DNA of 64,000 bases from Candidatus Zixiibacteriota bacterium (GCA_030613505.1 JAUWLW010000009.1:1110-65109); one strand, 5' to 3'; counted from the first letter of the stretch, positions 3,001 through 23,080 are shown. Translations and numbers: made by a program. The notes: generated from the sequence alone by a model not told the origin.

Positions 3001-4137
3001 GTGCCCAACAACTTCAACGGCAAGGCCGTGGTGCAGCTTTTCGACCGGCCTTGGTACTTCTACAGCGGCGACATGGACAGGGACATCTACCGGGACCGGT
3101 TGCTCGCTACGACGGATGTCGAGGTCTTGAACGGCCGCTTCGACGCGACGTTGGTCGTGCCGACGATGCCCGTCAATCCTATCCCGAGCTTCGACGCCGG
3201 GCCTCCCGTTGCCGCGGGAGAAGCGGCTCCGGCGGGGGCGGCGTCCGCGGCGGCCGATAACGCGGCCGCGGCCGCGGAGGGGGCCGGACCGCCGGCGCCG
3301 GCCGCGGCGTCGCCGTACCGCGTCCCGTCGCTCGCGCCCGTCGCCGAGGACGGCGTAGTTCACGTTAAAGCCGTGGCTTACGGGACCGGCTTCCGCCGGG
3401 TATACGTCTGCAACGAGGACGTAACGGTCAACGTGGCAGGGGAGGTTAGCTCCGGCGACAACGTCGGCCCGGATATCGACGTCTACTTGAACGATTATTC
3501 CTTCCGCAGCGGCGACCCCACCGACCCGACCCCCACGCTTCTGGTCGACGTGCGCGACGAGAGCGGCGTCCTCGTCGCGCGCAACCTCGAGGCCATAGAT
3601 AAGGATAAGGGCGAGAGAACCTTCGTGCCCTTCTCCGCCCGCATAACTAAACCCGACCCCAAATCGACGCCGACCGTTCTGGACCTCACTTATTATTACA
3701 AGGCCAAGGTGGGCGATTACCGCGGCGGCTCGGTGGAGAAAGAGATTTCGCTGGCAGACGGCGTGAGTACAATCGCCGTGACGGCGTACGACAGCTTGGG
3801 CAATAAGAGCCAGCGGAAGGTCCAATGCGTCGTGAGCGGGGCGTTGGGCATGGCGGAAGTGATGAATTGCCCGAACCCGTTCAAGGACGATACCTACTTC
3901 ACGTTCGTAGCCTCGAGCGACGTCGACAGCCTGGTCATTAAGATCTACACCGCCACCGGGCGCTTGATCCAGAAATTGGAAACCGGCGGCCTGCCGGCGG
4001 GCTACAACCAGATCCACTGGGACGGCCGCGACGGCGACGGCGACCGCATAGCCAACGGCGTTTACTTCTATAAAATCATCGCCCGGGCCGGCGGTGAGAA
4101 GATCGTCGCCCGGCAGAAGATGTTTAAACTGAGGTAG
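1..4137 (+). CDS. Peptidase C25 (gingipain-like) family cysteine protease, 5'-partial. It has an Ala/Pro-rich linker and a C-terminal FlgD-Ig/T9SS-CTD-like sorting domain.
   Basis: The reading frame is open from nt 1, so the gene starts upstream of the window. No signal peptide is visible. C25 catalytic dyad context is present: 'HYAGHGGPQVW' (His) and 'IIQCSCSTAYFD' (Cys). The N-terminus resembles a gingipain propeptide. A low-complexity linker 'AAGEAAPAGAASAAADNAAAAAEGAGPPAPAAASP' is present. The last ~90 aa ('CPNPFKDDTYFTF...ANGVYFYKIIARAGGEKIVARQKMFKLR') match the C-terminal domain shared with the proteases at 8642, 50503 and 52348. Confidence 0.7.
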   Translation, partial: ATGDVGEPELLMRRVHVAAPPEAHVSVEVERVSFDVRTGVDLYPRPRLKVEERHGEQTLSEEFAYDAVAYREGTYPAKFAELEGEDVMRGYRLISVAVYPYQYQPAAGTLRVVKSVVVRVSFRGGVRRPNARYPARPAEDGIFTRVVPAVVLNHEVASRWPFAGGIAPARDGDVWPTDFAGKAAVKVVVEEEALYRLSYAELKATGLPVDTLNPANLRFFAGPAKRLPRDFNYEPPGLTELPIYVAGQGDGRFDASDYVEFYGHGCDFFEHIEPGENGAQKFSKNRFTRYNFYWLVADAVPGKRMTAAAVAPTGGTKPAYFWDRLRLEEDNQDVAETENAILEEDEYWYWRIFNAPTGPSRIKSFTFKDPVNGAGAPKTYLQIMVREQEGLEGNGPHHTIVYLNYPDKNHIIFEEDNYKADVETYFHRRFPSRHLIDGQNRLYFEEVGDRAPIDFIMLDHFEFEYPRHFRAYQDYLHFSNPPGTNGKVLFEIPGFTTDDLVVYDVTRGRRLAAFEVKAAGNEYTLRFTDDIPSGQRWYVAASPSAARKPRDVYLDAGSKLRDVDENVDLVVVVYDGYYDNVMPLVNLRRAAGLNVLVARVTDVYDEYSWGLYDPGATRLLVKDVYRKAIYRPGGELPDHLFLVGDAYLDHRDNYGNFANRELWREFGRNQVPTYYINTSSSGRTSSDNYFVAMSASLAPDLAVGRFPAPFDDNIDAIVEKVVAYERHAANGPWNNRVILVADNDDKTESGGGRGDFTRDNENLEEEFTPLGFEVRKEYIEWLTRRFPVDRIEETGFDFMSRGERQYWVGRIMKPDFLKGFNGIIMHYAGHGGPQVWSHENLFLHHKDLPPVDDVDALENAPYLPVIIQCSCSTAYFDQWYGTENEPLDFGQCISEYILQVPRKGGVAALGSTRLGYEGAQHAFLQSFYGYVFPKKKARWSGVTVGEAHLVGKIKVGETIRDMFVLLGDPSMTLATPRPGLKLTPNKAKVKRGEKVKVAGTVPNNFNGKAVVQLFDRPWYFYSGDMDRDIYRDRLLATTDVEVLNGRFDATLVVPTMPVNPIPSFDAGPPVAAGEAAPAGAASAAADNAAAAAEGAGPPAPAAASPYRVPSLAPVAEDGVVHVKAVAYGTGFRRVYVCNEDVTVNVAGEVSSGDNVGPDIDVYLNDYSFRSGDPTDPTPTLLVDVRDESGVLVARNLEAIDKDKGERTFVPFSARITKPDPKSTPTVLDLTYYYKAKVGDYRGGSVEKEISLADGVSTIAVTAYDSLGNKSQRKVQCVVSGALGMAEVMNCPNPFKDDTYFTFVASSDVDSLVIKIYTATGRLIQKLETGGLPAGYNQIHWDGRDGDGDRIANGVYFYKIIARAGGEKIVARQKMFKLR

Positions 4138-4150
4138 CGTGGTAAACGAT

Positions 4151-5128
4151 ATGAAACCGTTATTTATTGCCGCGGTCCTTCTCGCGATAGCGGCGGCGAG
4201 CGCAAATGCCGACGAAAATAAATACGCCGCCGATTGGATGACGTACGGCGCCGGCGCCCGGGCGCTGGGGATGGGCGGCGCGTTCGTCGCCGTGGCCGAC
4301 GACGCTACGGCCGCCTATTGGAACCCAGCCGGGATGCCCTCGGTGGAGCGGGCCGCCTTCTCCGCCATGCACTCCTACACCTTCAACGGCCTCGCCGCGT
4401 ACGACAGCATTTACGGCGCGTATAACCTCGGCAAGTACGGCGCCGTGGGCGGCGGCCTGTTGATGTGCGCCGTCGACGATATTCCCATTACGGGCTGGAA
4501 CGACCCCGAATCGCCGAACAGGAGGCCCGTGTTGAAAGGGTACGCGGATTCGGGGGATTACGCCGTATACGGCTCGTACGGCCGCGAGTTGTTGCCCAAG
4601 TTTAACGTCGGCGCGAGCGGCATCTTTATAATGGGCCGGCACCTGGAAGACTTCGAAGAAGACGCCAACTCCTCCGGCCAGGCGCTCGACGTCGCGGCCA
4701 AGGCGGGCCCGTTCGGGCCGTTCACCGTCGGCGTGAACGTCCAGAATATATATTCCAATCTGAAATGGGATACCGGTAAGAAAGAGACGATTCCCACCAA
4801 CGTCAAGTTGGGCGGAGCGTACCGGCGCGCGGTCTCGAAGTGGGACAGCGAGTTCACGCTGGCCGCGGACTGCAACGTCAAGTTCGCGGGCTACGACTTC
4901 GCCTCTCAGCTCGCCGCGGGCGACGCGAGCTTCGACTTCTGCGGCGGCGGCGAGTGGTGGTACCGGAGGACGGTAGCGGTGCGATTGGGGAGCGAGCGTT
5001 CCGCCTTGACCGGCGGCGTGGGGCTCGCGGTGAGGGCGCTGGGCGCTTCCTTCGGCATCGACTACGCTTTTCTCTCTGACACCGGGCTCGAGTCCAGCCA
5101 CCGGGCGTCGGCCTCGGCCGCCTTCTAG
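4151..5128 (+). CDS. Outer-membrane beta-barrel protein, PorV/FadL-like (candidate shuttle for CTD cargo).
   Basis: Signal peptide 'MKPLFIAAVLLAIAAASANA'. Signature motif 'GAGARALGMGGAFVAVADDATAAYWNPAGM', which I recall from PorV(LptO)/FadL-like barrels. Alternating amphipathic strands. Ends in a C-terminal Phe (beta-signal). It lies 2 nt downstream of the C25 gene stop. A GTG at 4139 is an alternative start. Confidence 0.5.
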   Translation: MKPLFIAAVLLAIAAASANADENKYAADWMTYGAGARALGMGGAFVAVADDATAAYWNPAGMPSVERAAFSAMHSYTFNGLAAYDSIYGAYNLGKYGAVGGGLLMCAVDDIPITGWNDPESPNRRPVLKGYADSGDYAVYGSYGRELLPKFNVGASGIFIMGRHLEDFEEDANSSGQALDVAAKAGPFGPFTVGVNVQNIYSNLKWDTGKKETIPTNVKLGGAYRRAVSKWDSEFTLAADCNVKFAGYDFASQLAAGDASFDFCGGGEWWYRRTVAVRLGSERSALTGGVGLAVRALGASFGIDYAFLSDTGLESSHRASASAAF

Positions 5129-5176
5129 CGCAGCGCCAGAGGACCCGCGGCCCGCAACCTACAGGGGTTGATTAAA

Positions 5177-5380
5177 ATGTTCGGTTCGATCGGCATTCAG
5201 GAAGTATTACTTATACTGCTTATCGCGCTGCTTTTATTCGGCGCCAAACGCCTGCCGGAGATAGGCCGCGGCCTGGGCAAGGGCATTCGCGAATTTAAGA
5301 AAGCCTCGCGGGATATTAGCGGTAAAATTACCGAAGAAGCGGAAGACAAGGAGCCGGGGAAGAACGAATCAACGCCGTAA
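5177..5380 (+). CDS. tatA: Twin-arginine translocase subunit TatA/E.
   Basis: '[43 protein letters not shown]' is the canonical TatA TM helix plus amphipathic helix. A GGGG RBS-like run lies ~9 nt upstream of the ATG at 5177. A TTG at 5168 is an alternative start. Confidence 0.85.
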
Positions 5381-5437
5381 ACGGGCGGCGCGGGAAATCC
5401 GGCGGGCGCCCCTTCCTCCAATTTAATTCCGTAACTT

Positions 5438-6220
5438 ATGGGCGATAAATTGCTCGCGCTCGACGTGGGCAACACGTCTATCGCCGGCGGATACTTCGTC
5501 GGCGGTCGACTCGAGTTTCACGTTGACTTCTCAAGCGACGCGTCGCGGACCGCGGACGAATACGGGGCGCAGCTGCGGCACCTGGTGGAGCTCAACGGCG
5601 GCGCCGCGGCCGCCTTGCCGTCCGTAATGTGCTCGGTGGTGCCGCCGCTCACGTCGTGCCTGGCGGCGGCGCTCGAGAAATATTTCGGCGTAGCGCCGGT
5701 GGTAGTGGGCGACGACTACGACGCGTTGGGCATCGAGGTGCGCTATGAGAACGTGGCGGAGGTGGGCCCGGATCGCGTCGTCAACGCCCTGGCGACGCGC
5801 GAGTTGTACGGCGCGCCGGCGGTGGCGGTGGATTTCGGCACGGCCACTAATTTCGACGTCGTGGCCGCCGACGGCGCGTACGTCGGGGGCGTGATAGCGC
5901 CCGGCGTCGTCGTCTCGGCCAAGAGCCTTTTCGCGGAGGCGGCCCGCCTGGGCGCGGTGGGCCTTACGATGCCGCCGCGGGTGGTGGGGCGAAACACGGA
6001 CGAGGCTTTGCGCGCGGGCATCATCCTGGGCGCGGCGGGCGCCGCCGACGGGATAGTCGAAGCCATACGGGAGGAGAGGGGGGAGCGCGGCGCGTTGGTC
6101 GCGACCGGCGGCCTGGCGAACGTCGTAGCGCCGGTTATGAAGACGGCGCCGCGCGTCGACGCGGACCTCACGTTGAAAGGGCTCGCGCTGTCGTTCGAGC
6201 GGTTGGGCGGCGCGACGTAA
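5438..6220 (+). CDS. coaX: Type III pantothenate kinase.
   Basis: 'LLALDVGNTSI', 'GPDRVVNALA' and 'AVDFGTATNFDV' are CoaX/Bvg accessory factor family motifs. Length 260 aa. Confidence 0.8.
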   Translation: MGDKLLALDVGNTSIAGGYFVGGRLEFHVDFSSDASRTADEYGAQLRHLVELNGGAAAALPSVMCSVVPPLTSCLAAALEKYFGVAPVVVGDDYDALGIEVRYENVAEVGPDRVVNALATRELYGAPAVAVDFGTATNFDVVAADGAYVGGVIAPGVVVSAKSLFAEAARLGAVGLTMPPRVVGRNTDEALRAGIILGAAGAADGIVEAIREERGERGALVATGGLANVVAPVMKTAPRVDADLTLKGLALSFERLGGAT

Positions 6221-6230
6221 AACCACGACT

Positions 6231-7013
6231 ATGAGACGTTGCGGGATTTTGTGGCTTGCGGCGGCCGTTTTTATTTTCACGGCCGCGTGCCGCCGCGGCG
6301 AAGAGGGTGCCGAGAGCGCGGCGCCGGGAGAAGGGTACACGCCGCCGCCGGTGGAGTACGTCGTCGGAAAGATGGACGTGGACGACGACGCCGCGGAACC
6401 GTCGGTGCGTATGAACATAGCCGTCGACCCGTCGACGCCGGCCAAGGATATCGAGCGACTGTTGAACTACTTCGACAAGGAGCGGTACGACGAGTACGAT
6501 ATCGTTTGGGTTAACGTCTACTTCGACGTTGCCAAAGCGCGTTCGCCCGAGGCGGATACGCTGGCGCTGGTGGCGACGCTGCGCGTAAACCGCCCCGGGT
6601 TCCGTGAGCTCAAGCTCTCGGAAGATTTACTGGACCCGGAAGGAACGTTGGGCGGCCGACCCGAAGTCACTACTCAGACCGAGGAAACCCTTTACCTCGG
6701 CCGCCGCGGTCGGATGTTCGACTCCGGCAAGCAAGCGCAAACCCTCGTCGACATGATGGAAGATAAACCCGGCCACGCCCTCTACAGAGTCGTGTGGCAG
6801 AGCCCCGGTAATGCCCAATTGACGTACAGCGTTGAACAGGAGATGTTGGTGCGCGTCCGGACCGGCGTCTCGCGTGAGACGTGGGCCGAGATGTCGTACG
6901 AGGGCTTGGAACGCGCCGCGAGGGGCGCCGGCTTCGGCGGCAAGCGGCGCCACGGCGCCAACTACGTTTACGTTCGGGAAACGGCGGACGAGGCCGAGGG
7001 CGGAGGTGAGTGA
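6231..7013 (+). CDS. Hypothetical lipoprotein.
   Basis: Signal peptide with lipobox 'FIFTAAC'. I recognise no other motif. Confidence 0.4.
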   Translation: MRRCGILWLAAAVFIFTAACRRGEEGAESAAPGEGYTPPPVEYVVGKMDVDDDAAEPSVRMNIAVDPSTPAKDIERLLNYFDKERYDEYDIVWVNVYFDVAKARSPEADTLALVATLRVNRPGFRELKLSEDLLDPEGTLGGRPEVTTQTEETLYLGRRGRMFDSGKQAQTLVDMMEDKPGHALYRVVWQSPGNAQLTYSVEQEMLVRVRTGVSRETWAEMSYEGLERAARGAGFGGKRRHGANYVYVRETADEAEGGGE

Positions 7014-8641: not shown

Positions 8642-9853
8642 ATGAAGAAGGTATTTTTAATCGCTTTGATTATAGCCATAGCGGCGCCGGCGTTCGGCTT
8701 TAAGGTCTTCTATTACGGCGGCAAGATAGTAAAGCACGGTGAGGAGCAGATCCCCTGGACGATGAGGTTCAACAACCTCGGCACGCCGGACTGCGCGAAA
8801 GAGTTCGCCGCGCTGGCTTCGTCGCTTAATACCTGGTCCAACGTTACCAAGCAGTGGTACCGCAACAAACGCGGCGTTAATACGAGCACTATCAATTACG
8901 GCTACGACGGCGTTAACCTCTGCGTTTGGTATGAGCCCGGATACTCGGGTCAGGGAGGCTGGCCGTGGGCGGCGGGCGCCATCGCCGTGAACATCTTCTG
9001 GATGACGGACGCCGGTACGTTTTATAAGGTAGTCGAAAACGACGTCTGCTTCAACGGCCATAACTTCACCTGGTCCGACAAGGGCGAGGTGTACCGGATG
9101 GATGTCCAGAACATAGCGACCCACGAATTCGGTCACAACCTCGTCCTGGCCGATTTGTACGACGCCGCCTCGCGGGATTTTACGATGTACGGTTACGCGT
9201 CTACCGGCGAGACGAAGAAGCGTACGCTGCATCAGGACGATATAAACGGCATCCGATTCTTATATCCCAACGACGAAATTACGCTGGAGTCGTTCACCGC
9301 GACGGCGCGCGAGGGCCGGGTGCTGGTGGCGTGGAAGGTCTCGCGCGAGGAGAACCACGCCGGCTACAACCTCTACCGCTTGGAGGACGTGGGGGGCGGC
9401 GCCGACTACGTGAAATTGAACGAGGCGCTGATCGTAGGGCGCTCGCCGTACGAGTTTGAAGACGGCGGCGTGAAAGCGGGCACGGCGTACAAGTACCTGC
9501 TGGAGTCCGTGGACCTGAGCGGCGGCAAGGAGCGCTTCGGGCCGGCGCGGGTGGAGGTCCCGACGGCGCAGAAGCGGGTATTCGCGCTGGCGCAGAGCTA
9601 CCCCAACCCGGCGCGGACGGCGGCGACGATAAAGTTCGCGCTGCCGGAGGCGACGACGGCCGAGCTGGAGGTATACGATTTGAGCGGCCGGCGGGTGGCT
9701 ACGCTGTACTCCGGTGCGGCGGAGGCCGGGGAACGCGAGGTGGTGTGGAACCTGGCGGGCGACGACGGCTCCGCGGTGGCGCCCGGGGTGTACATATACC
9801 GGCTGCGGACGCCGGGCGACGTCGCCGCGCGCCGGCTGGTCGTGGCCCGGTAA
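8642..9853 (+). CDS. Secreted metzincin-like zinc metalloprotease with a C-terminal FlgD-Ig/T9SS-CTD-like domain.
   Basis: Signal peptide 'MKKVFLIALIIAIAAPAFG'. Variant metzincin motif 'HEFGHNLVLAD' (HExxHxxxxxD, lacking the canonical Gly) with a downstream Met-turn candidate 'FTMYGY'. The C-terminal ~90 aa ('YPNPARTAATIKFALPEATTAELEVYDLSGRRVATLY...GVYIYRLRT') and the preceding ~100 aa domain are homologous to the C-termini of the M14 paralogs. Confidence 0.65.
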   Translation: MKKVFLIALIIAIAAPAFGFKVFYYGGKIVKHGEEQIPWTMRFNNLGTPDCAKEFAALASSLNTWSNVTKQWYRNKRGVNTSTINYGYDGVNLCVWYEPGYSGQGGWPWAAGAIAVNIFWMTDAGTFYKVVENDVCFNGHNFTWSDKGEVYRMDVQNIATHEFGHNLVLADLYDAASRDFTMYGYASTGETKKRTLHQDDINGIRFLYPNDEITLESFTATAREGRVLVAWKVSREENHAGYNLYRLEDVGGGADYVKLNEALIVGRSPYEFEDGGVKAGTAYKYLLESVDLSGGKERFGPARVEVPTAQKRVFALAQSYPNPARTAATIKFALPEATTAELEVYDLSGRRVATLYSGAAEAGEREVVWNLAGDDGSAVAPGVYIYRLRTPGDVAARRLVVAR

Positions 9854-10032: not shown

Positions 10033-10491
10033 TTGGCCCCGATGAGGCTGTTGGTTGGGATTTTAACGGCTTTGGCTTTGGCCGGCGCGGCATGGCCCGG
10101 CGGCAAAGAAGCTTTTATCGATTACTACGCCACCGCGTCCTCCCTGATCAGTTCGCTTAACAACGCGGCCGCGGACGTGGAACGGTTGAATCTACAAAGC
10201 GGCGACTTCTCAGACGACGTCGCCGGCGACATCAAGTCCCGGCTCGTAAAAGCCCGCGAGGGTTTCAATTCCATTTTGACGTACGACGACCACACGAACG
10301 AATTGAACGAAGGGTACGTGCTCTACATAGATAAGATGTTGTTGGCGTTAATGGTAGCCAAAGAATATCGCGAAAAAGGAGAGCCTGAAAAGCGCGACCG
10401 CCTGGTCAAAATTACGGCCGAGGCCGGCGGGCTGCGGACCGAACTAAACGATAAGGTCCAGCGCGATAAAAAGAAATGGGGGCTCGACTAG
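10033..10491 (+). CDS. Hypothetical secreted protein.
   Basis: Signal peptide 'MRLLVGILTALALAGAAWPG'. The mature part is charged and helical. No recognised domain. Confidence 0.4.
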   Translation: MAPMRLLVGILTALALAGAAWPGGKEAFIDYYATASSLISSLNNAAADVERLNLQSGDFSDDVAGDIKSRLVKAREGFNSILTYDDHTNELNEGYVLYIDKMLLALMVAKEYREKGEPEKRDRLVKITAEAGGLRTELNDKVQRDKKKWGLD

Positions 10492-10512: not shown

Positions 10513-11238
10513 ATGAGGACAGTAAACGTCATAAAAAGAGTTACGGCGGCCGCCGTTCTGATATCAGTTATGATGCTGGGCTTGGCTTGCTACGAACGTT
10601 TCATCGTCATTCAGGTGAAGAAGCCGCCCGAAATCGACCCGTCGGTGTACAAGCGGGTCGGCGTGCTGCCGTTCGAGGGCGAGGAGGACGAGGGCCTTTT
10701 GGCCTCGAAGGCGGTGCGCGAGAAGATGGCGGCTGAGGAAAATTTCCTCGTCGAACCCGCCGAGACGGTCGAGGCCGCCCTCGACCGGGTCGATTTCTTC
10801 GATCCGTCGAGTAGGGACCAGGCCGTGGCTTTAGGCGCCGAGTTGGGGGTGGACGCGGTGCTCATCGGCGAAGTCGAATTTATACAGCGGACCTATAGCC
10901 CGGAGGGCGACGTCCGCAACGAGCTCTACACCGCGGATCGCCGGGCGATAGCTCCGTTCGAGCTCGGGACGTCGTACGCCACGCGGTACATGGACGTGAA
11001 TTTAAGGTATACCTTGCGGCTGACCGTCAAAGCGCTCGACGTCAGGACGGGGCGTTTGATGCGCCGGCGGGAATTCGAAGCGACGACGATGAATACCTAT
11101 AAACAACGCGAAGTTACCGAGGCCTCTTTTAAGGAAAAAGAGATCTTCGATGAGCTGCTCGAAGAAGTTGTGGATGACTTCGTATACACGCTCCAACCCC
11201 ACGACGTGGCACAGACGCGTGAAGTTGCGAGGTTTTAA
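10513..11238 (+). CDS. Lipoprotein with a TolB-N/LpoB/CsgG-like alpha/beta domain. Hypothetical.
   Basis: Lipobox 'LGLAC'. 'VGVLPFEGEEDEG...LGAELGVDAVLIGEV' resembles small periplasmic lipoprotein domains that dock on envelope machines. Its 3' end overlaps the start of the next gene by ~20 nt. Confidence 0.4.
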   Translation: MRTVNVIKRVTAAAVLISVMMLGLACYERFIVIQVKKPPEIDPSVYKRVGVLPFEGEEDEGLLASKAVREKMAAEENFLVEPAETVEAALDRVDFFDPSSRDQAVALGAELGVDAVLIGEVEFIQRTYSPEGDVRNELYTADRRAIAPFELGTSYATRYMDVNLRYTLRLTVKALDVRTGRLMRRREFEATTMNTYKQREVTEASFKEKEIFDELLEEVVDDFVYTLQPHDVAQTREVARF

Positions 11239-14200
11239 ATACAAACTGGCATGGGCCTTGGCTCTCGGGGTCGTTTTTACCGCCGCGCGCGCGGCGGCTT
11301 TCGGTAAGTCCGTCGTCCGCAACGAGAAGTTGTCCTGGCGGATCCTGCCCACCGAACATTTCGACATCTATTACTACGAGGAGGAAGATTTTCTCCTCGA
11401 TTGGGGGGCCGAGATTGCCGAGGACGCCTACATCAAGATGTCGGACGAGCTGGGGTACGATTTGAATAAGCGTATCCCGATAATAATTTTCATGTCGGCG
11501 CGCCATTTCGAACAAAACAACATAAGTCCGGTATCGGGGGAGGGCGTGGGCGGTTTTTCGGAACCGCTTAAGAGCCGCCTCGTGATGCCGTACAACGGCT
11601 CCCAGCGCCAGTTCGAGGATACCATGGTCCACGAAATGGTGCATATCTTCCAATTTAACATGCTGTTCCCGACCATGGGCGCGGTATTTACGGCCGCGGC
11701 GCCGCCGGACTGGTTTATGGAGGGGATGGCTACCTACTACGGTAACGATATCGATCCGGAAGGCGAGATGGTCTTGCGCGACGCCGTCATGAGCGAGAGC
11801 GTCCCCGACCTCGAGCGACTGAACGATTTCCGGTATTTACCCAGCCCGTACCTCGGTTATAAGCTAGGCCAGTCGGTAATGGTGTATTTAGTCGAGACGT
11901 ACGGCGACGACGCACCGGCCGAGCTACTGCGGGCGTTCGGCGGCACGACGTTGAGGAGGCCCGATACCGCTCTGGACGACGCGTTCGGCATCAAGCTCGC
12001 CGACCTCAGCGAGGATTGGAAGGTTTGGCTCCGGCGACGCTATTGGCCTCTTATAGGCGAAAAGGACCAGCTCAAGGATTTCGCGACCGAGCTGACGCCC
12101 AAAGATGACAGGCGCGATTATATTACGTATTTCAAGCCGAAGTGGTCGCCCTCGGGCGATTTGGTGGCGTGCCTAACGGTCAAGGAGCGCTTCCTGGACA
12201 TCTTCCTCGTGAACGCCGAGACCGGCGAGAGGTTCGAGAATCTCACCAAGGGTTATTCGCTGTCGAAGTACGAGTACATAATGTATTTGCAGAACGGCCT
12301 CAGCTGGTCCCCGGACGGCAACTTTATCGCTTTCGTCGGCAAAAAGGGAACCTACGACCAGATATTCATATTGAACGTTTTCAACCGCAAGATCGCTCGG
12401 CGCTATAACCCCGAGTTCGAGGATGTCCTCTCGCCGGCGTACTCGCCCGACGGGACCAAGATCGCTTTCGCCGGCATCAAACGCGCGAAGAGGGATATCT
12501 ACGTTCTGGACGTGGCGTCGGGCGCGATTACGCCCGTTACCGACGACTTCTACTCCGACGGCTATCCCAATTGGTCGCCGGACGGCGAGTACATTTACTA
12601 CGCCTCCGAACGGCAGACGTTCCACAACATATTCCGCGTACGGCCCGACGGCACGGGCCGGGAGCAGATCACCTTCGGCGATCACGAGAACGTTTCGCCC
12701 GCGGTATCCCCCGACGGCTCGCGGTTGATGTTCGTATCGGACCGCGCGGACGGCATCTTCAATATTTTCGCGATGGATTTGGAGACACGGGACTTAGGCC
12801 GGTATACCGACGTCGTGACCGGCGTTATGGACGCGGCCTGGTCCCCCGACGGCGAGACCATAGCGTTTACGTCTTTCGAGAACATGACGTATTCCATCTG
12901 GGCCATGCCGTGGCGGAACGAGCCGGTGGCGGAGGTCGCGCTCGAGCGTCCGGAGCCGGGCGACTACGGGTACGCGGAGTGGCTGGCGCGGCGCGGCGAC
13001 CGGGGCGAGGGCGGGGATGAAGTCGAACTGTCGGTCGGCGGTGAACCCGCGGGCGTTGCCGTGGCCTTCGCCGGCGAGGAGGAATCGGGGGCGGGCGCCG
13101 GCGGCGAGGAGAGCGAGGCCGGCGAGGAGGAGGAGCTCGAGCCGCCGACGGTCCGGGACCTCGTCGTTTCCGATATCGTGGCCGACTCGCGGAAGTACGG
13201 CATCAAGTTCAGCCCCGATTACCTCTACACGACGTTTTCCTATACCTCGGGCGGCATTTTGGCCAACTATACCGTATTCGGTTTGAGCGACATCCTCGGC
13301 AGCCACCGCATCGACATCCTCTTCGATTTGACAACCATCGGCTCTTTTAACGATTTAAGCCTCGCGTTGGATTACTATTACATGACGAGGCGCACGTCGT
13401 ACGTCTTCTCGGCGATAACCTGGCGGGATTGGTATGTAGCTAACGAGATCGGCTTCGACGAGCGCCTTTCGGGCGGGTCGGCGGTCGCCTATTATCCGTT
13501 GAACATGAGGAACCGGGTGGGCGTCGGCCTTTACGGTCACCACCGCCGGCGGATATACTATGACTACGAGCTGGAAAAGGAGATACCGTCCCGGGACGAC
13601 AATATGTTGGGCGCGTTGGCCAGTTTCACCCGCGATACGTCGCAGTGGGGGTACTATCACCCCACCGCGGGCACCCGTTTGGCCTATACCGTCCGCCAGA
13701 CGGTGCCGGCCACGTCGCAATCGTTGTATTATACCGAACAGATCCTCGACGCCCGGCGGTATATTAGGATATCCCGGCGGATTAGCCTGGCTTTCCGGGC
13801 CGCGGCCGGCCTCGGCTCCGGCCGCGCCCCCGAGAACTTCTTCATAGGCGGCGGCTCGACGCTGCGCGGCTACCGTTACGACGAGATCTACGGCACGCGT
13901 TTCGGCCTGGGCAGTTGCGAGTTCCGGTTCCCGATCGTCGATTACGTCGTGTGGCCCATAGAGGGTTTCGCCATCGGCGGTTTCCGCGGCCTTTTCTTCG
14001 TAGACCTCGGCTCCGCGTGGGCGGACTACGACAACGAGTCCATCTACCCCGACGACCGCCAGTGGCACACCGACGACGAGGACCTCGAATACGACCGCTT
14101 CACGTTCGCCACGTCCGAAGGCGGGTGGCACCTGGTCCACGGCAAGATGGCGTTCGGGACCGGTTTCAGGTGGTGGCTGGGGTACTTCGACCTGAAGTTC

Positions 14201-14278
14201 GATTGGGGTTGGCGCACTAACCTCCGCGACGTGGAGAAGCCGCCGCGCTTCCACTTCACGCTGGGCGCCGATTTCTAA
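11219..14278 (+). CDS. Multidomain outer-membrane protein: N-terminal gluzincin-like peptidase, TolB-like PD40 beta-propeller, acidic linker, and C-terminal Omp85-family beta-barrel.
   Basis: Start chosen at GTG 11219, giving the signal peptide 'VKLRGFKYKLAWALALGVVFTAARAAAFG'. The ORF is open from 11150. 'HEMVHIFQ' plus downstream 'FMEGMATYY' form an HExxH...E gluzincin motif. Repeated 'WSPDG/YSPDG/VSPDG' PD40 blades are present. Acidic linker 'GEEESGAGAGGEESEAGEEEELEPP'. The C-terminal ~340 aa carry Omp85 hallmarks 'GGGSTLRGYRYDEIYGTRFGLGSCEFRFPI', 'GGFRGLFFVDLGSAW' and a terminal '...FHFTLGADF' beta-signal. Confidence 0.7.
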   Translation: MKLRGFKYKLAWALALGVVFTAARAAAFGKSVVRNEKLSWRILPTEHFDIYYYEEEDFLLDWGAEIAEDAYIKMSDELGYDLNKRIPIIIFMSARHFEQNNISPVSGEGVGGFSEPLKSRLVMPYNGSQRQFEDTMVHEMVHIFQFNMLFPTMGAVFTAAAPPDWFMEGMATYYGNDIDPEGEMVLRDAVMSESVPDLERLNDFRYLPSPYLGYKLGQSVMVYLVETYGDDAPAELLRAFGGTTLRRPDTALDDAFGIKLADLSEDWKVWLRRRYWPLIGEKDQLKDFATELTPKDDRRDYITYFKPKWSPSGDLVACLTVKERFLDIFLVNAETGERFENLTKGYSLSKYEYIMYLQNGLSWSPDGNFIAFVGKKGTYDQIFILNVFNRKIARRYNPEFEDVLSPAYSPDGTKIAFAGIKRAKRDIYVLDVASGAITPVTDDFYSDGYPNWSPDGEYIYYASERQTFHNIFRVRPDGTGREQITFGDHENVSPAVSPDGSRLMFVSDRADGIFNIFAMDLETRDLGRYTDVVTGVMDAAWSPDGETIAFTSFENMTYSIWAMPWRNEPVAEVALERPEPGDYGYAEWLARRGDRGEGGDEVELSVGGEPAGVAVAFAGEEESGAGAGGEESEAGEEEELEPPTVRDLVVSDIVADSRKYGIKFSPDYLYTTFSYTSGGILANYTVFGLSDILGSHRIDILFDLTTIGSFNDLSLALDYYYMTRRTSYVFSAITWRDWYVANEIGFDERLSGGSAVAYYPLNMRNRVGVGLYGHHRRRIYYDYELEKEIPSRDDNMLGALASFTRDTSQWGYYHPTAGTRLAYTVRQTVPATSQSLYYTEQILDARRYIRISRRISLAFRAAAGLGSGRAPENFFIGGGSTLRGYRYDEIYGTRFGLGSCEFRFPIVDYVVWPIEGFAIGGFRGLFFVDLGSAWADYDNESIYPDDRQWHTDDEDLEYDRFTFATSEGGWHLVHGKMAFGTGFRWWLGYFDLKFDWGWRTNLRDVEKPPRFHFTLGADF

Positions 14279-14469
14279 TGGTCGTGGCCGGAAGTTACGT
14301 CGAAATCGACCGCCGGCGGTGCGACTTGTGCGGCGCGTGCGTCGCGGTATGCGCGCCGCTCGCGCTCCGCATCGAGGGTGAGATGCTCGCGTACGACGCC
14401 GATGCCTGTACGGCCTGCGGCGACTGCCTTATAACCTGCCCGGTGGAGGCGCTTACGGCGGGGGAGTAG
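14278..14469 (+). CDS. 2x[4Fe-4S] ferredoxin (63 aa).
   Basis: Two CxxCxxCxxxCP motifs: 'CDLCGACVAVCAP' and 'CTACGDCLITCP'. Its ATG overlaps the TAA stop of the upstream gene (TAATG). Confidence 0.7.
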   Translation: MVVAGSYVEIDRRRCDLCGACVAVCAPLALRIEGEMLAYDADACTACGDCLITCPVEALTAGE

Positions 14470-14543
14470 GTAGGCCGCGGAGCTCGGCGAGATTATTTGG
14501 GGTTGCCGCGGCGACCCCTTTTTAGTAGAATAACGTGCCTTCG

Positions 14544-14629
<86 letters not shown>

Positions 14630-14649
14630 AATTTTTCGCGGGATTCCCG

Positions 14650-14913
14650 ATGGCGTCTCGAGCCGATAAAATACGGTTGTTGGTCGCCGGCCTGGTGGCC
14701 AGGCCTCGTCTCGAGGGTTACCTCTCGAGCCGGCGCGTGCGCCTCGAGCCCCGCCAGGAGCGCTTCTTCGACCGGCCCTTCATGTGCCTGCTCGAGGAAC
14801 GCGGCGCGCTGGTGCCGGTTACGGTGGCGTTCGGCGAGGAGGAATGGGACGCGGCGGCGGCCGCCGCCGAGAGGGCCGGCGTCGAGGCCGACGCCCTCGG
14901 GATAAAAAACTGA
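14650..14913 (+). CDS. Hypothetical small protein between the two tRNA-Ser genes.
   Basis: ORF with ATG at 14650 ('MASRADKIRLLVAGLV...'). The longer version in the track would start inside the tRNA. No recognised domain. It may not be a real gene. Confidence 0.25.
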   Translation: MASRADKIRLLVAGLVARPRLEGYLSSRRVRLEPRQERFFDRPFMCLLEERGALVPVTVAFGEEEWDAAAAAAERAGVEADALGIKN

Positions 14914-14931
14914 ATACGACGCAGGTTCCGC

Positions 14932-15020
14932 GGAGAGGTGTCCGAGCGGCTTAAGGAGCACGCCTGGAGAGCGTGTGGGCCCGTTGGGCCTCGTGGGTTC
15001 GAATCCCACCCTCTCCGCCA
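14932..15020 (+). tRNA. tRNA-Ser (anticodon GGA), with encoded CCA.
   Basis: Acceptor stem GGAGAGG/CCTCTCC, identical to the first tRNA. Anticodon stem-loop 'cacgc CTGGAGA gcgtg'. Long variable arm. T-arm 'gtggg ttcgaat cccac'. 3'-GCCA. Confidence 0.8.
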
Positions 15021-15036
15021 TTCTAAAAACTCCGCT

Positions 15037-16891: not shown

Positions 16892-18664
16892 ATGGCCAAA
16901 GTCCGGAAGCTCGACGAAGCAACGATAGCGCTCATCGCCGCGGGCGAAGTGGTGGAGGGCCCGTGGTCGGTCGTCAAGGAGCTTACCGAGAACAGCCTCG
17001 ACGCCGGCGCGGGGCGCGTCGACGTATCCGTCGACGGCGGCGGCTTCAAAGAGATAAAGGTGACGGACGACGGCTGCGGCATGGGCGAGGAGGACCTGGC
17101 GTTAGCGTTCGAGCGTTACGCGACCAGCAAAGTCGCGGGTCCCGAGGACCTCGACGCCGTCGCGACGTTGGGGTTTCGGGGCGAAGCGCTGCCGGCCATA
17201 GCCGCGGTCTCGCGGGTGACGGTCTATACGCGGGCCGAGGACGAACCGACGGGGTTGAAGGCGGAGGTCGCGGCCGGGACGGTGGCCGTTTCGCGGGAGG
17301 GCGCGCCGCCGGGGACGACGGTAATAGTCCGCGACCTTTTTTACAACGTCCCGGTGCGTCGTAAGTTCGCGGGCCGGCCGGCCAGCGAGTGGCGCCGCGC
17401 CGCGGAAGCGTTCAAGCGCCTAGCGCTCGCCCGGCTGGCGCCGGCGTTCTCGCTCACCAAGGACCGCCGCCTGCAATACACTACCTCGGCCGACGCCACC
17501 GCGCGGCAGCGCGTCGGCGAGGTCCTGGGGTGGGAGCTGTTGGACCAATTGATCCCCGTCGCCGCCCAAAGGGGCGATTTTTCTCTGGAGGCCTACCTGT
17601 CGCCGGCGTCGGCCTCGTACGGGACTACCGGCAATATTTACACCGTCGTGAACGGCAGGCCGGCTCGCGCCAAGCCGGTATTCAAGGGCGTTATGTCGGC
17701 CTACGACGGTAGGCTGGAGCGCGGCCGGTACCCCCTGGTTGTGCTCTACCTCGACGTCCCGGCGGAAGCCGTCGACGTCAACGTACACCCCCGCAAGGAG
17801 GAGGTCCGGTTCGCAGACGGGGCCGCGGCGTTCGAATTCGTAAGTCGCGCGCTACGGGAGGAGCTGGCGCGCGTGGGCGTCGTGGTGCCGTCGACTACTT
17901 TCGAGATGCCGTCGCGAAAGGCTCCATCCGGCTCGCCGGAGGTGACGGCGGCGATTCGGGAAAGCGTCCAGGGCTACCTGAAAAGACACGGCCTGTGGCC
18001 GGAAGGTATGTTCGGCGGCGTCGGAAGCGGTGAAGTGAAGGCAGAGGCCGCGGCCGCGCCGGCGGGCGTCGCCGTCGCCGAGCGCTCGCCGGATGGCGGC
18101 TCGGTGGAAGTGTTGGGCCAGCTCGATAATACGTACGTTATCGTACGCCGGGGAGGCGACCTGGTCGTCGTAGACCAGCACACCGCCCACGAGCGGGTCA
18201 TCTACGACCGCCTGGCCCGGGCCGCGGGCGACGCCGGCCGCCAGGAGCTCCTTATGCCGGTTACGGTGTCGTTGGGGGCGGCCGCGGCGGCGGATTTGCG
18301 GCCGTGTCTTCAAGCGCTCAACGACTTGGGGTTCGGGGTCGAAGAGTTCGGCGGCGACGCCTTCGTACTGCGCGGCCATCCCAACGACGTACGCGTCGGC
18401 GACGTCGAAAAGTTTTTAGCGCGCGTGGTAACAGATTTCGTTGAGGAGGGACGACCCGCGGAGCTGGAGAGACGCCGAGAGTCCGTGCTCAAGGGTGTGG
18501 CTTGCCACGGCGCCGTGAAGGCCGGCGAGCGTTTGGAGCACGCGGAGATGGCGGCGCTGGTACGCGACCTCTTCGCTTCGCCCTCGCCGGACGTCTGCCC
18601 CCACGGCCGGCCGACCATGGTCAACCTCGCGGCGCGGGATTTGGCGCGTCTATTCCGGCGTTAA
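16892..18664 (+). CDS. mutL: DNA mismatch repair protein MutL.
   Basis: N-terminal GHKL ATPase motifs 'IAAGEVVEGPWSVVKELTENSLDAGA' and 'DDGCGM'. C-terminal dimerisation region. 590 aa. Confidence 0.85.
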   Translation: MAKVRKLDEATIALIAAGEVVEGPWSVVKELTENSLDAGAGRVDVSVDGGGFKEIKVTDDGCGMGEEDLALAFERYATSKVAGPEDLDAVATLGFRGEALPAIAAVSRVTVYTRAEDEPTGLKAEVAAGTVAVSREGAPPGTTVIVRDLFYNVPVRRKFAGRPASEWRRAAEAFKRLALARLAPAFSLTKDRRLQYTTSADATARQRVGEVLGWELLDQLIPVAAQRGDFSLEAYLSPASASYGTTGNIYTVVNGRPARAKPVFKGVMSAYDGRLERGRYPLVVLYLDVPAEAVDVNVHPRKEEVRFADGAAAFEFVSRALREELARVGVVVPSTTFEMPSRKAPSGSPEVTAAIRESVQGYLKRHGLWPEGMFGGVGSGEVKAEAAAAPAGVAVAERSPDGGSVEVLGQLDNTYVIVRRGGDLVVVDQHTAHERVIYDRLARAAGDAGRQELLMPVTVSLGAAAAADLRPCLQALNDLGFGVEEFGGDAFVLRGHPNDVRVGDVEKFLARVVTDFVEEGRPAELERRRESVLKGVACHGAVKAGERLEHAEMAALVRDLFASPSPDVCPHGRPTMVNLAARDLARLFRR

Positions 18665-19534: not shown

Positions 19535-22500
19535 TTAGGCCGGCGGTTTGGTTTCGCTTGTGCGCTTCAGCGCTTCGTTTAAGATGACGTCGGAGCGCGC
19601 GAGTTTTTTCTGCAGGTCGTCGAGGCGGTCGCTGGTCGATTTTAAATTCGCCATTTTGGCGTCGATGTCTTTGGCGAGAAAGCTCACTTGGGCGAGCTTT
19701 TCGGCGACGGCGTCCACCCGTTTTTCTTCGTTCCGCAGCTGGCCCATTTTCTCTTCCAGGGCCGCCGCGGCGCGATTTATCTGTTCGAACCTGGCCTCGA
19801 CTTTCTTGAGGTCGGCGCGTTTGGCGTTCACGTCGCGAACGGCCGCGGCGACGTCTTTGCGCGTCTCCGAAAGTTCGCTTAGCTGGCCCCGGATCTGGTT
19901 TATGGCCTCCGCCTCGCCCTTGAGGTCCGTCATACCGTCTTGGACCAGGTCGTAATAGGCTTTGAGGTCGCGGACTTCGCGTTCGACCGCCGCCACTTCG
20001 TCCCGCCGTTGGCCCAGGACGCGCAGGCGTTCGTCGAGGTCTTCGGCCAACATGGTGAGGGCGTTCACGCGTTCGTCGACGGCGACGATGTCCTGGCTCC
20101 GCCGCTCGACGAGGGTGGCTTTGCGGGTCGCTTCCTGGGAGGCATCCAGGATCTTCTCGAGGACGCGATTGACTTCTTTCTCCGTATCAGCGGCTTGCGC
20201 GGCGTGGGAGGAGACGCGGTCGTTGACGTCCGTTACCTCGGCGCGGAGCTCTTCGATCTTTTCCACTTCGCCGGCCAGCTCGTGCCTCAACTTGCCCTGG
20301 GCCGCCAGGGCTTTTTCGACCGCGGCGGCGCTCTCCTCGAGGGTGACGACTTTTTCGGCCAGGCGGTCGATCTCCTTCTCGGATTTGAACGTTGCCCGAC
20401 GTTTGTCATCGAGAAGGGAGAGGTCTCGGTTGAGGTCGTCGAGGCGGGAGCTCAGCGCGTCGAGTTTGGCGTCCTCGCGGAGTACCGTCATCATGCGCCC
20501 GTCGATGTCTTTGAGGAGAGTGTCGATTTTTACGGTCTTGTCGTGGACGCTGGTAACCAGCTCCTCGCGGAGCCGGATCTCCTCCTGGCGTCGTTCGACT
20601 TGCTCGAGCGCTCCCTGCACGGATTTGTTCATACGGGCGAAATCTTCTTGCGTTCGGCCGCGTTCCGTCCGATATTCGCCGAGTTCGCGCGACGCGGCCT
20701 CGGATACGCGGCCAAGCTCCTCCTGCGCCTTTTGAATATTCTTGATCTCCTGCGCCGCGGCCTCGACCCTGCCTGCGTCGGCCGTTATCTCGCGGATTTT
20801 ATTTTCGACCTCGTCGAGGCGAGAGGCTCGAGCGGTGAAGGCCGCTTCGCGCGCTTTGTTCTCCGAGATTTGGTCGGCGACGGCGCGGGACATCGCGTCC
20901 GCCTCGGCCAGCCGCGTCTCGAGCATGCCGATTTTATCGTGTAATTTCTCCATCGCAGGCGCTTGGGCTTGGACTTCGGCCAGGTCCGCCTTGACGGCCC
21001 GGAGCACCTCAGCTCGGTTATCTATGGCTTCCAGGGACGCTTCGGCTTCGTCCAGTTTGCTTTCGGCGAAGCCTAGTTTGCCGACGAGGTCTTCGGCGGT
21101 GCGCGATACCTTGTCGAAGTCGGCCCGGACGGTGCGGAACTCGGCCATCTGGCGTTCGAACGTCGCCACTTCGCGTGCGAAATCCTCTTGGCGGCCTTCG
21201 ACATCGGCCAGCTTTTCCCGGATGCCTTGAACTTCGCGGAAGCGGTCGCGCGTTTCGGCCAGCGTCTCCTCCAGGTCGGCGACGCGCTTTTCGCCGTCGC
21301 GCACCATCTTCTGTTCTTCGGCCAGCTTCTTGATCCGAACGTCCATTTCCCACAGCAGGACGTCGAGCTTACCCGACTCCTCGTTGGCCTTGGTGATAAG
21401 TTCGCGTTGGTCTTCCAGCACGTGGATCTTGGTATTGATATGTTCGATAAGCGCGTTTAAGCGGTCGACGTTTTGCGACGCTTCGGTGTAGCGTTCGCGC
21501 TCGAGGCGGAGGGCGCCGAAATCCTCTTGGATTTTAGCGAGCGATTTATCGAGGGTTTGAGCTCGGTCGGCCGCGTTGTTAAGCTCCTTCTGAGCCGCTC
21601 CGAAGCGAGTGTTGAAGTCGCCGAGTTTTTCGTCGATGCCGTTCATTTTCCCGAGTACGGCGTCGGCGCGTTTTTCGGCGCCGGCGAGCTCGGCGACGCG
21701 CTTTTCGAAGCCCTCGACTTTCTGGTCGATCTTAGTCGTACGGCCGGCCAGCGCGCCCACGCGACGTGAAGCGTCACTTACGCCGGCGTCGGCGTCTTTG
21801 AGCTCTTTGTGGATGTTATCTAGCGAACTTTTTACGCCGGCTACGTCTTCGCGGTACTTTTGGGCTTCGCCGCGGACGCGATTGAGCTCGCTCTGGGCAG
21901 CTTTACCCTCGGCGGCAGCTTCTTTCGCCGCTTGGGTCGTGGTTTCGATCCGGGTTTTTATGGCGTCGATATTTTTCGCGGCCCTGGCTGCCTCGCTTAG
22001 TTTGCTCTCCAGGGGGGCGATTTTCGTGGCGACCTCTTCGGCCCGTTCGCGCAGCGTTTCCGTTTTGTTAGATAACGTCGTGATGGTTTTGGCGCGCTTC
22101 TCGAGTTGACCCAAGCCGCCCTCGATGTCCTTTAGGCGGTGTTCGATTCCGTCGCTCGAGATTTTGAGGGTACCCTTAAGGTTGGACAACGCGGTGGTTT
22201 GTTGGTCGGCAGTTTTTTTAGTATCGGCCAGCGACGATTTGATTTCGGCAAGGGTTTGTTTATTGGCTTCGTTAACCTTGGCGGTCTTTTCGGCGGCGGC
22301 ACCTGCGGCGCGGAGCTCGGCGCGGAATTCGGTCATTCGGCCGGCGGCTTTTTCAACGTTGTCCAGTTTGGCCCGGGCGGCGGCGATATCCTTTTCGACC
22401 GCTTTTAACTTCTTGGCCTGGTCGCCCACGCCTGCTACGTCTTTTTTGACGGATTTCAGCTCGGCATCGGCCCGGCCTATGCCCTGCACCGCGGTTTTGA

Positions 22501-23080
22501 CCGCTTTGTCCAGATCGACGATTTGCGTCGCCAACGACGACACGCGGTCGGCCGACTCGCGAACGCGGGCCGTAATTTTGTCCTCGGTACCTGCCAGCCT
22601 TTGGGTTATTTTAGCTATCTCCGCGTCCGTTCTCCGCAATTCGCCGAGTTTGGCCTCGAGTTTCGAAACGTCGCCGGCGGCGCGGCTTACGCTCTCGTTT
22701 AACGTACGCGCTTTTTTCTCGAGGGTAAGGAGGTCGGCCTGCTTTTCAGCCAGCGCGTTAAGTTGTTTCTCGACTTCTCCGGTTTTCGCGGCGGCCGCCG
22801 CGGTTTTTTCGGCGGTGGCGTCAACCTGCGCCGGCAGGCCTTTCGAGCTCTTGACCGCTCCGGCCAACGACGCGGCAGCAGCCTCGAACTCCTTGATTTT
22901 ATTGTCGAGTTCGTCCGCTTTTTTGAGGTCGCGTTCGACTTTGGCCGCCCGAGCCGTTAGCTTCTTTTCCTGGTCCGAGGCTTTGTCGATTAGCTTTTTA
23001 AATTCGGCCGCCCGCTTATCGAAATACTCGCCGACCAGTTCCGGCGTTAACTCCTTCTTTTTTCCAAACAAGGGGGCCAT
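19535..23080 (-). CDS. Giant coiled-coil protein (1181 aa), Ala/Glu/Lys/Leu-rich, with no ATPase head.
   Basis: Near-continuous heptad-like composition throughout ('LKKADELDNKIKEFEAAAASLAGAV...'). No Walker motif, TM segment or signal peptide. N-terminus 'MAPLFGKKKELTPELVGEYF'. A 31-nt gap separates it from the parA-like gene. Confidence 0.6.
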   Translation of the reverse strand: MAPLFGKKKELTPELVGEYFDKRAAEFKKLIDKASDQEKKLTARAAKVERDLKKADELDNKIKEFEAAAASLAGAVKSSKGLPAQVDATAEKTAAAAAKTGEVEKQLNALAEKQADLLTLEKKARTLNESVSRAAGDVSKLEAKLGELRRTDAEIAKITQRLAGTEDKITARVRESADRVSSLATQIVDLDKAVKTAVQGIGRADAELKSVKKDVAGVGDQAKKLKAVEKDIAAARAKLDNVEKAAGRMTEFRAELRAAGAAAEKTAKVNEANKQTLAEIKSSLADTKKTADQQTTALSNLKGTLKISSDGIEHRLKDIEGGLGQLEKRAKTITTLSNKTETLRERAEEVATKIAPLESKLSEAARAAKNIDAIKTRIETTTQAAKEAAAEGKAAQSELNRVRGEAQKYREDVAGVKSSLDNIHKELKDADAGVSDASRRVGALAGRTTKIDQKVEGFEKRVAELAGAEKRADAVLGKMNGIDEKLGDFNTRFGAAQKELNNAADRAQTLDKSLAKIQEDFGALRLERERYTEASQNVDRLNALIEHINTKIHVLEDQRELITKANEESGKLDVLLWEMDVRIKKLAEEQKMVRDGEKRVADLEETLAETRDRFREVQGIREKLADVEGRQEDFAREVATFERQMAEFRTVRADFDKVSRTAEDLVGKLGFAESKLDEAEASLEAIDNRAEVLRAVKADLAEVQAQAPAMEKLHDKIGMLETRLAEADAMSRAVADQISENKAREAAFTARASRLDEVENKIREITADAGRVEAAAQEIKNIQKAQEELGRVSEAASRELGEYRTERGRTQEDFARMNKSVQGALEQVERRQEEIRLREELVTSVHDKTVKIDTLLKDIDGRMMTVLREDAKLDALSSRLDDLNRDLSLLDDKRRATFKSEKEIDRLAEKVVTLEESAAAVEKALAAQGKLRHELAGEVEKIEELRAEVTDVNDRVSSHAAQAADTEKEVNRVLEKILDASQEATRKATLVERRSQDIVAVDERVNALTMLAEDLDERLRVLGQRRDEVAAVEREVRDLKAYYDLVQDGMTDLKGEAEAINQIRGQLSELSETRKDVAAAVRDVNAKRADLKKVEARFEQINRAAAALEEKMGQLRNEEKRVDAVAEKLAQVSFLAKDIDAKMANLKSTSDRLDDLQKKLARSDVILNEALKRTSETKPPA

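Follow-up and report, generated by a model that had tools for sequence, protein, structure and literature searches.

A WD40-like Omp85 fusion of gluzincin, TolB-type propeller and outer-membrane barrel, with an upstream partner lipoprotein, in a Coatesbacteria-like genome

The window analysed here is a stretch of 64,000 nucleotides from Candidatus Zixiibacteriota bacterium (GCA_030613505.1 JAUWLW010000009.1:1110-65109). On its plus strand lies a gene whose single product, hereafter the fusion, joins a zinc-peptidase domain, a β-propeller and an Omp85 barrel; directly upstream lies the gene for a lipoprotein-like protein, hereafter the partner. The open reading frame (ORF) of the fusion spans 11150..14278, and a GTG start at 11219, also picked by independent gene callers (P0001 and the exact-match P0390, both 1019 amino acids), gives a protein of 1019 amino acids. 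A preliminary description, made from the sequence alone, had read a signal peptide and four successive parts from this ORF and had proposed a type Vd-like self-exporting protease. The signal peptide and the order of the parts are confirmed by the translation, by hidden Markov model (HMM) searches and by an AlphaFold2 model, and every motif quoted in that description is found at its place in the 1019 residues. The two genes and their features are as follows.

10513..11238, + strand: partner gene, directly upstream of the fusion, encoding a 241-amino-acid lipoprotein-like protein with a signal peptide ending in LGLAC
11219..14278, + strand: fusion gene, 1019 amino acids plus stop (signal peptide, Peptidase_MA_2, PD40 propeller, linker, Omp85 barrel)
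11219..11299, + strand: Sec-type signal peptide, VKLRGFKYK-LAWALALGVVFTAA-RAAA, read from the sequence, with the cleavage site inferred before FGK
11300..12118, + strand: gluzincin domain, Peptidase_MA_2 (Pfam E 8.3e-13, 49 bits against a cut-off of 32)
11630-11644, + strand: HEMVH sequence motif, residues 138-142
11714-11740, + strand: FMEGMATYY sequence motif, residues 166-174, which holds the third zinc ligand, E168
12119..12913, + strand: six-bladed PD40/TolB-type β-propeller, with SPDG motifs at residues 309, 363, 408, 452, 496 and 541
12914..13195, + strand: linker between propeller and barrel
13004-13144, + strand: acidic disordered insertion in the linker, residues 596-642 (predicted local distance difference test, pLDDT, <50)
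13196..14275, + strand: 16-strand Omp85 barrel (PF01103 E 1e-17, 65 bits against a cut-off of 24)
13856-13885, + strand: L6 RGY motif, STLRGYRYDE, residues 880-889, with LRGY at 882-885
13994-14020, + strand: β13 F-x-D-x-G motif, FFVDLGSAW, residues 926-934, with FVDLG including D929
14249-14275, + strand: C-terminal aromatic β-signal, the sequence motif FHFTLGADF, residues 1011-1019

The structure of the fusion was predicted with AlphaFold2 on an alignment of 86 sequences (pLDDT 85.3; predicted template modelling score 0.81). The model lays out a signal helix, a peptidase domain at residues ~40-300, a propeller at 304-564, disorder at 596-642 and a barrel at 665-1015, and the Pfam matches to Peptidase_MA_2, PD40 and Omp85 PF01103 all exceed their curated cut-offs. 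The signal peptide lacks a lipobox cysteine and forms a helix at residues 3-19 in the model. The gluzincin is joined directly to the six-bladed TolB-type propeller, and together they make up a compact module of the N-terminal ~540 residues.

By its HExxH motif and downstream glutamate, the N-terminal domain is a predicted gluzincin of clan MA(E). The Peptidase_MA_2 match supports this assignment, which the preliminary description had also made, as do H138, E139, H142 and E168, which are invariant in 86 homologues of about 30-87% identity. AlphaFold2 predicts an alpha/beta-plus-helical fold for the domain. As a single sequence it found no match in the PDB, and as a profile it weakly matched the M9 collagenases (7esi, E 4.6e-4). 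When the peptidase domain alone was used as the query, 474 clusters (50% identity) were recovered at E ≤ 1e-30. The best 150 of these were mostly proteins of 900-1100 amino acids with the domain at residues ~25-300; thus, this peptidase subtype appears to be essentially dedicated to the fusion architecture. The strict conservation of the zinc site suggests that catalysis is likely the selected function.

The propeller matched Pfam PD40 at E 3.4e-32 and was modelled with pLDDT mostly >90. TolB in the PDB was its match both by sequence (E 2e-26) and by fold (Foldseek, E 7e-14), and Tricorn_N, Tricorn_2nd and DPPIV_N were among the precomputed Pfam matches. The six SPDG-type motifs and these matches agree with the PD40/TolB-type blades claimed earlier. 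The NCBIfam TolB model TIGR02800 matched at E 3.8e-41, with 141.4 bits against an equivalog cut-off of 343.15, the match being confined to the propeller part (model positions 197-395). The fusion therefore shares with TolB a six-bladed PD40 propeller, and the adjacent partner has an alpha/beta fold like that of the TolB N-domain. The differences are that TolB is soluble in the periplasm, carries its two domains on a single chain and is encoded in a tol-pal operon, whereas the fusion attaches its propeller to a peptidase and a barrel and falls below the equivalog cut-off.

The C-terminal 360 residues are a BamA/TamA-type barrel with an intact lock formed by the L6 RGY and β13 D-x-G motifs and with an aromatic β-signal. 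An Omp85 barrel had been proposed for this region, and the PF01103 and BamA HMM matches substantiate it together with the 16 strands that AlphaFold2 predicts between residues 665 and 1015. In the model, strands 11 and 12 are joined by the long RGY-bearing loop, the position that L6 has in BamA. Foldseek against the PDB returned BamA barrel-only structures at TM 0.63-0.69 (normalised to target) and also TamA. In the 86 homologues R883 and G884 are conserved and D929 is invariant; with the zinc ligands conserved in the same set, both the zinc site and the L6/β13 lock are therefore under selection. The NCBIfam BamA model TIGR03303 matched residues 718-1019 (E 4.5e-14) with 51.8 bits against an equivalog cut-off of 297.15, and the match was restricted to the barrel (model positions 449-741). 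Thus, the fusion resembles BamA and TamA in its 16 strands, its (V/I/L)RG(F/Y) motif in L6 with the β13 partner motif, its C-terminal aromatic residue and its best HMM and fold matches, but it is not a BamA equivalog (52 bits against 297): the POTRA repeats that BamA combines with the barrel are lacking, and where BamA has its substrate-receiving POTRA arm the fusion has the peptidase-propeller module.

The absence of POTRA repeats had been proposed earlier and holds on both lines of evidence: the Pfam scan of the fusion gave no POTRA or ShlB model scoring at E ≤ 1, and the AlphaFold2 model has no beta-alpha-alpha-beta-beta unit at residues 565-660. The poly-acidic linker described for this segment is also real, with 26 aspartate or glutamate residues against 8 lysine or arginine residues at positions 566-659. 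Across the family, however, most members have 31-42 amino acids between propeller and barrel, and this segment is acidic and 70-160 amino acids long only in the Coatesbacteria-like clade that includes the fusion of the window. The long acidic linker is a clade-specific insertion and not a family feature. No conserved cleavage motif was seen when the variable linkers of the family were compared.

A fused ORF could also be an assembly artefact, and read coverage breaking between propeller and barrel had been named as the sign of one. A first homologue search listed 120 proteins, nearly all with >95% query cover and the same three Pfam domains, on independent contigs among which are chromosomes of 2.3-5.4 Mb. 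Over all searches, >100 contigs independent of one another carry full-length homologues, some of these contigs being closed chromosomes of 2.3-6.9 Mb. Additionally, the identical protein is present in a second assembly, on a 69-kb NCBI contig, near-identical proteins have the GenBank entries MEE8639237.1 and MEE9456056.1, and base composition shows no break across the fusion gene. The same domain order is thus widespread in the databases, and a chimeric or mis-joined ORF is ruled out, with a probability that we regard as practically nil. Among the names that source databases give to the homologues are "BamA/TamA family outer membrane protein", which near-identical proteins in GenBank also bear, "PD40 domain-containing protein", "peptidase MA family metallohydrolase" and "Tol biopolymer transport system component". 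A locus scan of one genome per GTDB species, with a 10-sequence alignment as the query, found relatives of the fusion in at least 571 species-representative genomes, spanning Poribacteria, Zixibacteria, Calditrichia, WOR-3, Cytophagia/Bacteroidota, Ignavibacteriales, Eisenbacteria, Thermoanaerobaculia, Gemmatimonadota and GN15.

The architecture had been presented as undescribed, and this is wrong. Heinz & Lithgow 2014 (Front Microbiol 5:370, PMC4104836) divided the Omp85/TpsB superfamily into ten subfamilies, one of which, termed "WD40-like" or "WD40-Omp85", combines PF01103 with PF07676 domain profiles; because that paper already defined the subfamily, the claim of novelty fails. Their Table S3 lists about 100 WD40-like members with Phyre matches to BamA/TamA barrels and to TolB, and its column 'best aminopeptidase hit' names tricorn factor F3, aminopeptidases or collagenase G. 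The fusion is a member of this catalogued subfamily: it has the PF01103 barrel with BamA/TamA as the best fold, the PD40 TolB-like propeller, an aminopeptidase/collagenase-like gluzincin and no POTRA, in the same order of gluzincin, propeller and barrel. The taxa are shared as well (Caldithrix, Ignavibacteria, Gemmatimonadetes and Cytophagia), and full-length homologues of the fusion occur there at 27-31% identity. The window copy differs in coming from a lineage of Coatesbacteria-like metagenome-assembled genomes, unsampled in 2014, and in its lineage-specific acidic linker of 70-160 amino acids. The text of PMC4104836 covers only the propeller and mentions neither the invariant zinc site nor the conserved partner lipoprotein. 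Later papers (to 2024) list the WD40-like Omp85 subfamily as conserved and uncharacterised. A paper on the BAM (β-barrel assembly machinery) of Bacteroidota makes no mention of a propeller, TolB, a peptidase or a metalloprotease, and Omp85 appears there only in the references.

The fusion and the upstream lipoprotein are coupled in an operon. The stop codon of the partner gene (TAA, 11236-11238) lies beyond the GTG start of the fusion, so that the two genes overlap by 20 nucleotides, and the partner is homologous to the gene at the same position beside a fusion homologue of 30% identity (22% identity over 230 amino acids). Iterated HMM searches placed the partner immediately before the fusion in 49 of 84 loci, which belong to Coatesbacteria-like genomes, Poribacteria and Thermoanaerobaculia. 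We found no earlier description of a conserved upstream lipoprotein beside a WD40-like Omp85, and the association is newly noticed here. A profile search with the partner returned 1292 homologues, some with PF16539 (FlgT_M) or the Joint Genome Institute label "TolB-like protein". Its predicted fold matched FlgT (11.2), PelC (11.0), LpoB (10.7), the TolB N-domain (9.7), LptE (9.0) and CsgG (8.3). The majority of them are known to work at the outer membrane from within the periplasm. In Poribacteria and Thermoanaerobaculia a TPR lipoprotein of ~140 amino acids precedes the partner. In loci without the partner, the genes upstream of the fusion are housekeeping genes, with no virulence or mobile-element genes among them.

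The best reading, which we hold to be somewhat probable, is that the fusion is an outer-membrane-anchored, periplasm-facing peptidase that works with the upstream lipoprotein. The model has 16 strands, with L6 between the eleventh and the twelfth, and this places the N-terminus of β1 in the periplasm; from there the peptidase-propeller module would be expected to stay in the periplasm on a flexible tether. Two further findings favour the periplasm. The partner fold, similar to FlgT, PelC, LpoB, the TolB N-domain and LptE, is typical of proteins beneath or inside outer-membrane barrels on the periplasmic face. Additionally, the evident extracellular proteases of the window (C25, M10 and two M14 peptidases, listed below, with a PorV-like gene beside them) carry C-terminal domains of the type IX secretion system (T9SS) type, and the fusion has none. 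The housekeeping character of its neighbours in other phyla also speaks for this reading.

We propose that the barrel would be inserted by the cell's own BAM and that the linker would hold the peptidase-propeller module on the periplasmic side. The propeller may then capture or filter unfolded or disordered polypeptide segments and present them to the zinc site, a step suggested by analogy because TolB binds disordered epitopes and propellers gate the tricorn and prolyl oligopeptidase (POP)-type peptidases. The barrel would serve as the outer-membrane anchor and may also dock or recruit clients bearing a β-signal, while the partner, presumably co-transcribed, would dock on the periplasmic face of the barrel and act together with the fusion. 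On this proposal the fusion might be a fused counterpart of a quality-control protease associated with BAM, such as BepA. BepA, an M48 metalloprotease whose TPR domain docks on BAM, would be analogous as a zinc protease at an Omp85 machine, and tricorn, prolyl oligopeptidase and DPP-IV as enzymes in which a propeller controls the access of substrates to a peptidase. They differ in that they are M48 or serine peptidases whereas the fusion has a Peptidase_MA_2 or M9-like gluzincin, and BepA is not covalently joined to BamA.

Several points weigh against this proposal. Its weakest step, the quality-control role, is drawn by analogy, and a literature search found no functional study of subfamily members, be it of topology, activity or substrate. 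The partner does not adjoin the fusion in the Zixibacteria, Calditrichia, Bacteroidota, Eisenbacteria and Gemmatimonadota loci, even at relaxed thresholds, and is therefore no universal component. Even the shortest linkers (31-42 amino acids) are long enough to thread a barrel, and FhaC is a precedent for an N-terminal segment that can cross the lumen of an Omp85 protein.

This last point bears on the self-export proposed in the preliminary description, a type V-like process in which the Omp85 barrel would move its own peptidase-propeller passenger to the surface, there to be displayed or released by autoproteolysis. The passenger-then-barrel order is like that of autotransporters, at least 31 amino acids precede β1, the active site appears intact from its sequence, and the N-terminal segment of FhaC in the barrel lumen is again a general precedent. 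We nevertheless judge self-export to be quite improbable. The fusion has the 16-strand Omp85 barrel of type Vd proteins but neither their single POTRA nor their patatin passenger (no PF01734 match), and PlpD, the sole precedent claimed, was reported by Hanson et al. 2024 (PMC11116518) to be a homodimer with an exclusively periplasmic patatin domain, in which the Omp85 scaffold has been reused for a new function. With its passenger in the periplasm, PlpD therefore no longer supports self-export. The likeness that does hold is of an enzyme domain N-terminal to a 16-strand Omp85 barrel in one chain, the scaffold probably being reused as an anchor, but PlpD is a patatin lipase with one POTRA and the fusion a metallopeptidase with a propeller and no POTRA. 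Additionally, strand parity in the model puts the start of β1 in the periplasm with L6 and its RGY lock kept in the lumen, a tightly folded two-domain module of ~540 amino acids would need to cross, the variable linker has no conserved cleavage motif, the fold class of the partner faces the periplasm, and the obvious secreted proteases of this organism use T9SS-type C-terminal domains. Surface display is thus a minority reading, and the label of a type Vd-like self-exporting protease is not supported.

Two other explanations give the fusion a different role. Heinz & Lithgow proposed that WD40-like Omp85 proteins are BamA-BamB-like fusions (PMC4104836), and accordingly the fusion could be a BAM-like assembly factor whose propeller scaffolds lipoproteins and which inserts a subset of outer-membrane proteins, with the peptidase as an accessory. 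The barrel does retain L6 RGY and the β13 D-x-G motif and has its best HMM and fold matches in BamA/TamA, and the neighbouring lipoproteins recall accessory subunits of BAM, many lineages having a TPR lipoprotein (as BamD is) and a small alpha/beta lipoprotein. However, there is no POTRA domain to receive substrates, the propeller is of the six-bladed TolB/PD40 type rather than the eight-bladed BamB type, the strictly invariant zinc site favours catalysis over scaffolding, and the peptidase subtype is almost confined to the fusion architecture; we consider such a factor unlikely. More doubtful than self-export or the assembly factor is a split, membrane-anchored TolB analogue, in which the propeller of the fusion and the TolB-N-like lipoprotein would serve a Tol-Pal-like tethering or peptidoglycan role and the peptidase would trim peptidoglycan-linked proteins or stem peptides. 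TolB is the best match of the propeller, the partner matches the TolB N-domain, LpoB and FlgT_M, and a gene of the EPSP (5-enolpyruvylshikimate-3-phosphate)-synthase/MurA family lies upstream in Zixibacteria loci. Against this, TIGR02800 reaches 141 bits of the 343 required and only on the propeller, the partner falls in a broad fold class, with similar scores for PelC, LptE and CsgG, the neighbourhood of the fusion lacks tol, pal and peptidoglycan-binding genes, and the EPSP-synthase neighbour is lineage-specific and of either MurA or AroA type.

This locus is no proof of a new secretion mechanism. There is a small chance that the module is threaded through or past its own POTRA-less barrel to the surface or, less radically, that the fusion, the LptE/PelC/LpoB-fold lipoprotein and the small TPR lipoprotein form an undescribed machine of the outer membrane in which an Omp85 barrel is coupled to proteolysis. 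If true, the former would be a new type V-like secretion subclass. Several large, conserved subfamilies of Omp85 have no known function, and the WD40-like proteins are one of these; what makes this locus valuable is its invariant catalytic site together with the conserved partner lipoprotein, rather than a new type of secretion. For study of the family, the upstream lipoprotein of the LptE/PelC/LpoB/TolB-N class, coupled to the fusion in at least three lineages, is a concrete candidate partner.

The remaining genes noted in the window are these.

28-4137, + strand: 1369-amino-acid C25 (gingipain-like) peptidase with a propeptide and a FlgD_ig C-terminal domain
4139-5128, + strand: weakly PorV-like outer-membrane protein, directly after the C25 gene
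8155-8619, + strand: secreted ORF of ~154 amino acids ahead of the matrixin gene, no Pfam match
8642-9853, + strand: matrixin (M10) with a Por_Secre_tail/FlgD_ig C-terminal domain
10033..10491, + strand: 152-amino-acid secreted helical protein, 68% identical to the ORF at the same position in the Coatesbacteria locus L001
14544-14629 and 14932-15020, + strand: tRNA-Ser(CGA) and tRNA-Ser(GGA), immediately downstream of the fusion gene
16892-18664, + strand: MutL-like ORF, judged from its translation alone
19535-23080, - strand: 1181-amino-acid ORF with coiled-coil-type, sub-threshold Pfam matches only, in a region of AT skew -0.35
26182-28575, + strand: cobalamin-dependent methionine synthase (MetH-type domains)
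50503-52254 and 52348-54096, - strand: two tandem M14 zinc carboxypeptidases, each with a FlgD_ig C-terminal domain

The ORF at 10033-10491 may be the first gene of the fusion cassette, to which it is weakly attached. It stands where Poribacteria and Thermoanaerobaculia have the TPR lipoprotein of ~140 amino acids. Neither BLASTP nor hhalign supported it as a diverged TPR lipoprotein, and it is unrelated to the 154-amino-acid ORF upstream of the matrixin gene. A long antisense ORF at 14275-15021 was rejected as an artefact that runs across the tRNA-Ser genes. The methionine synthase and the MutL-like ORF are ordinary housekeeping genes, and the fusion therefore sits in a core-genome neighbourhood. 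No canonical BamA was found in the 20 ORFs of the window, mainly the larger ones, that were scanned against Pfam.

In other genomes, the gene immediately before the fusion homologue, on the same strand and ~1.3 kb upstream, belongs to the EPSP-synthase family (MurA or AroA type, ~420-440 amino acids) in L025, L037, L049 and L071, which are Zixibacteria, GN15 and unclassified-bacterium loci. ORFs of like size and placement also occur in L041, L044 and L067.

The C25 peptidase and the PorV-like protein look like a T9SS-style pair of cargo and shuttle, in a genome that is Coatesbacteria-like and not of the Bacteroidota. Taken together, the C25, M10 and M14 genes suggest a protein-degrading lifestyle with secretion that depends on C-terminal domains. 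In the Coatesbacteria locus L001, two M10 genes of this kind (3044-4747 and 4923-6612) lie just upstream of the fusion cassette, each preceded by a 155-amino-acid ORF that resembles the one ahead of the matrixin gene in position.

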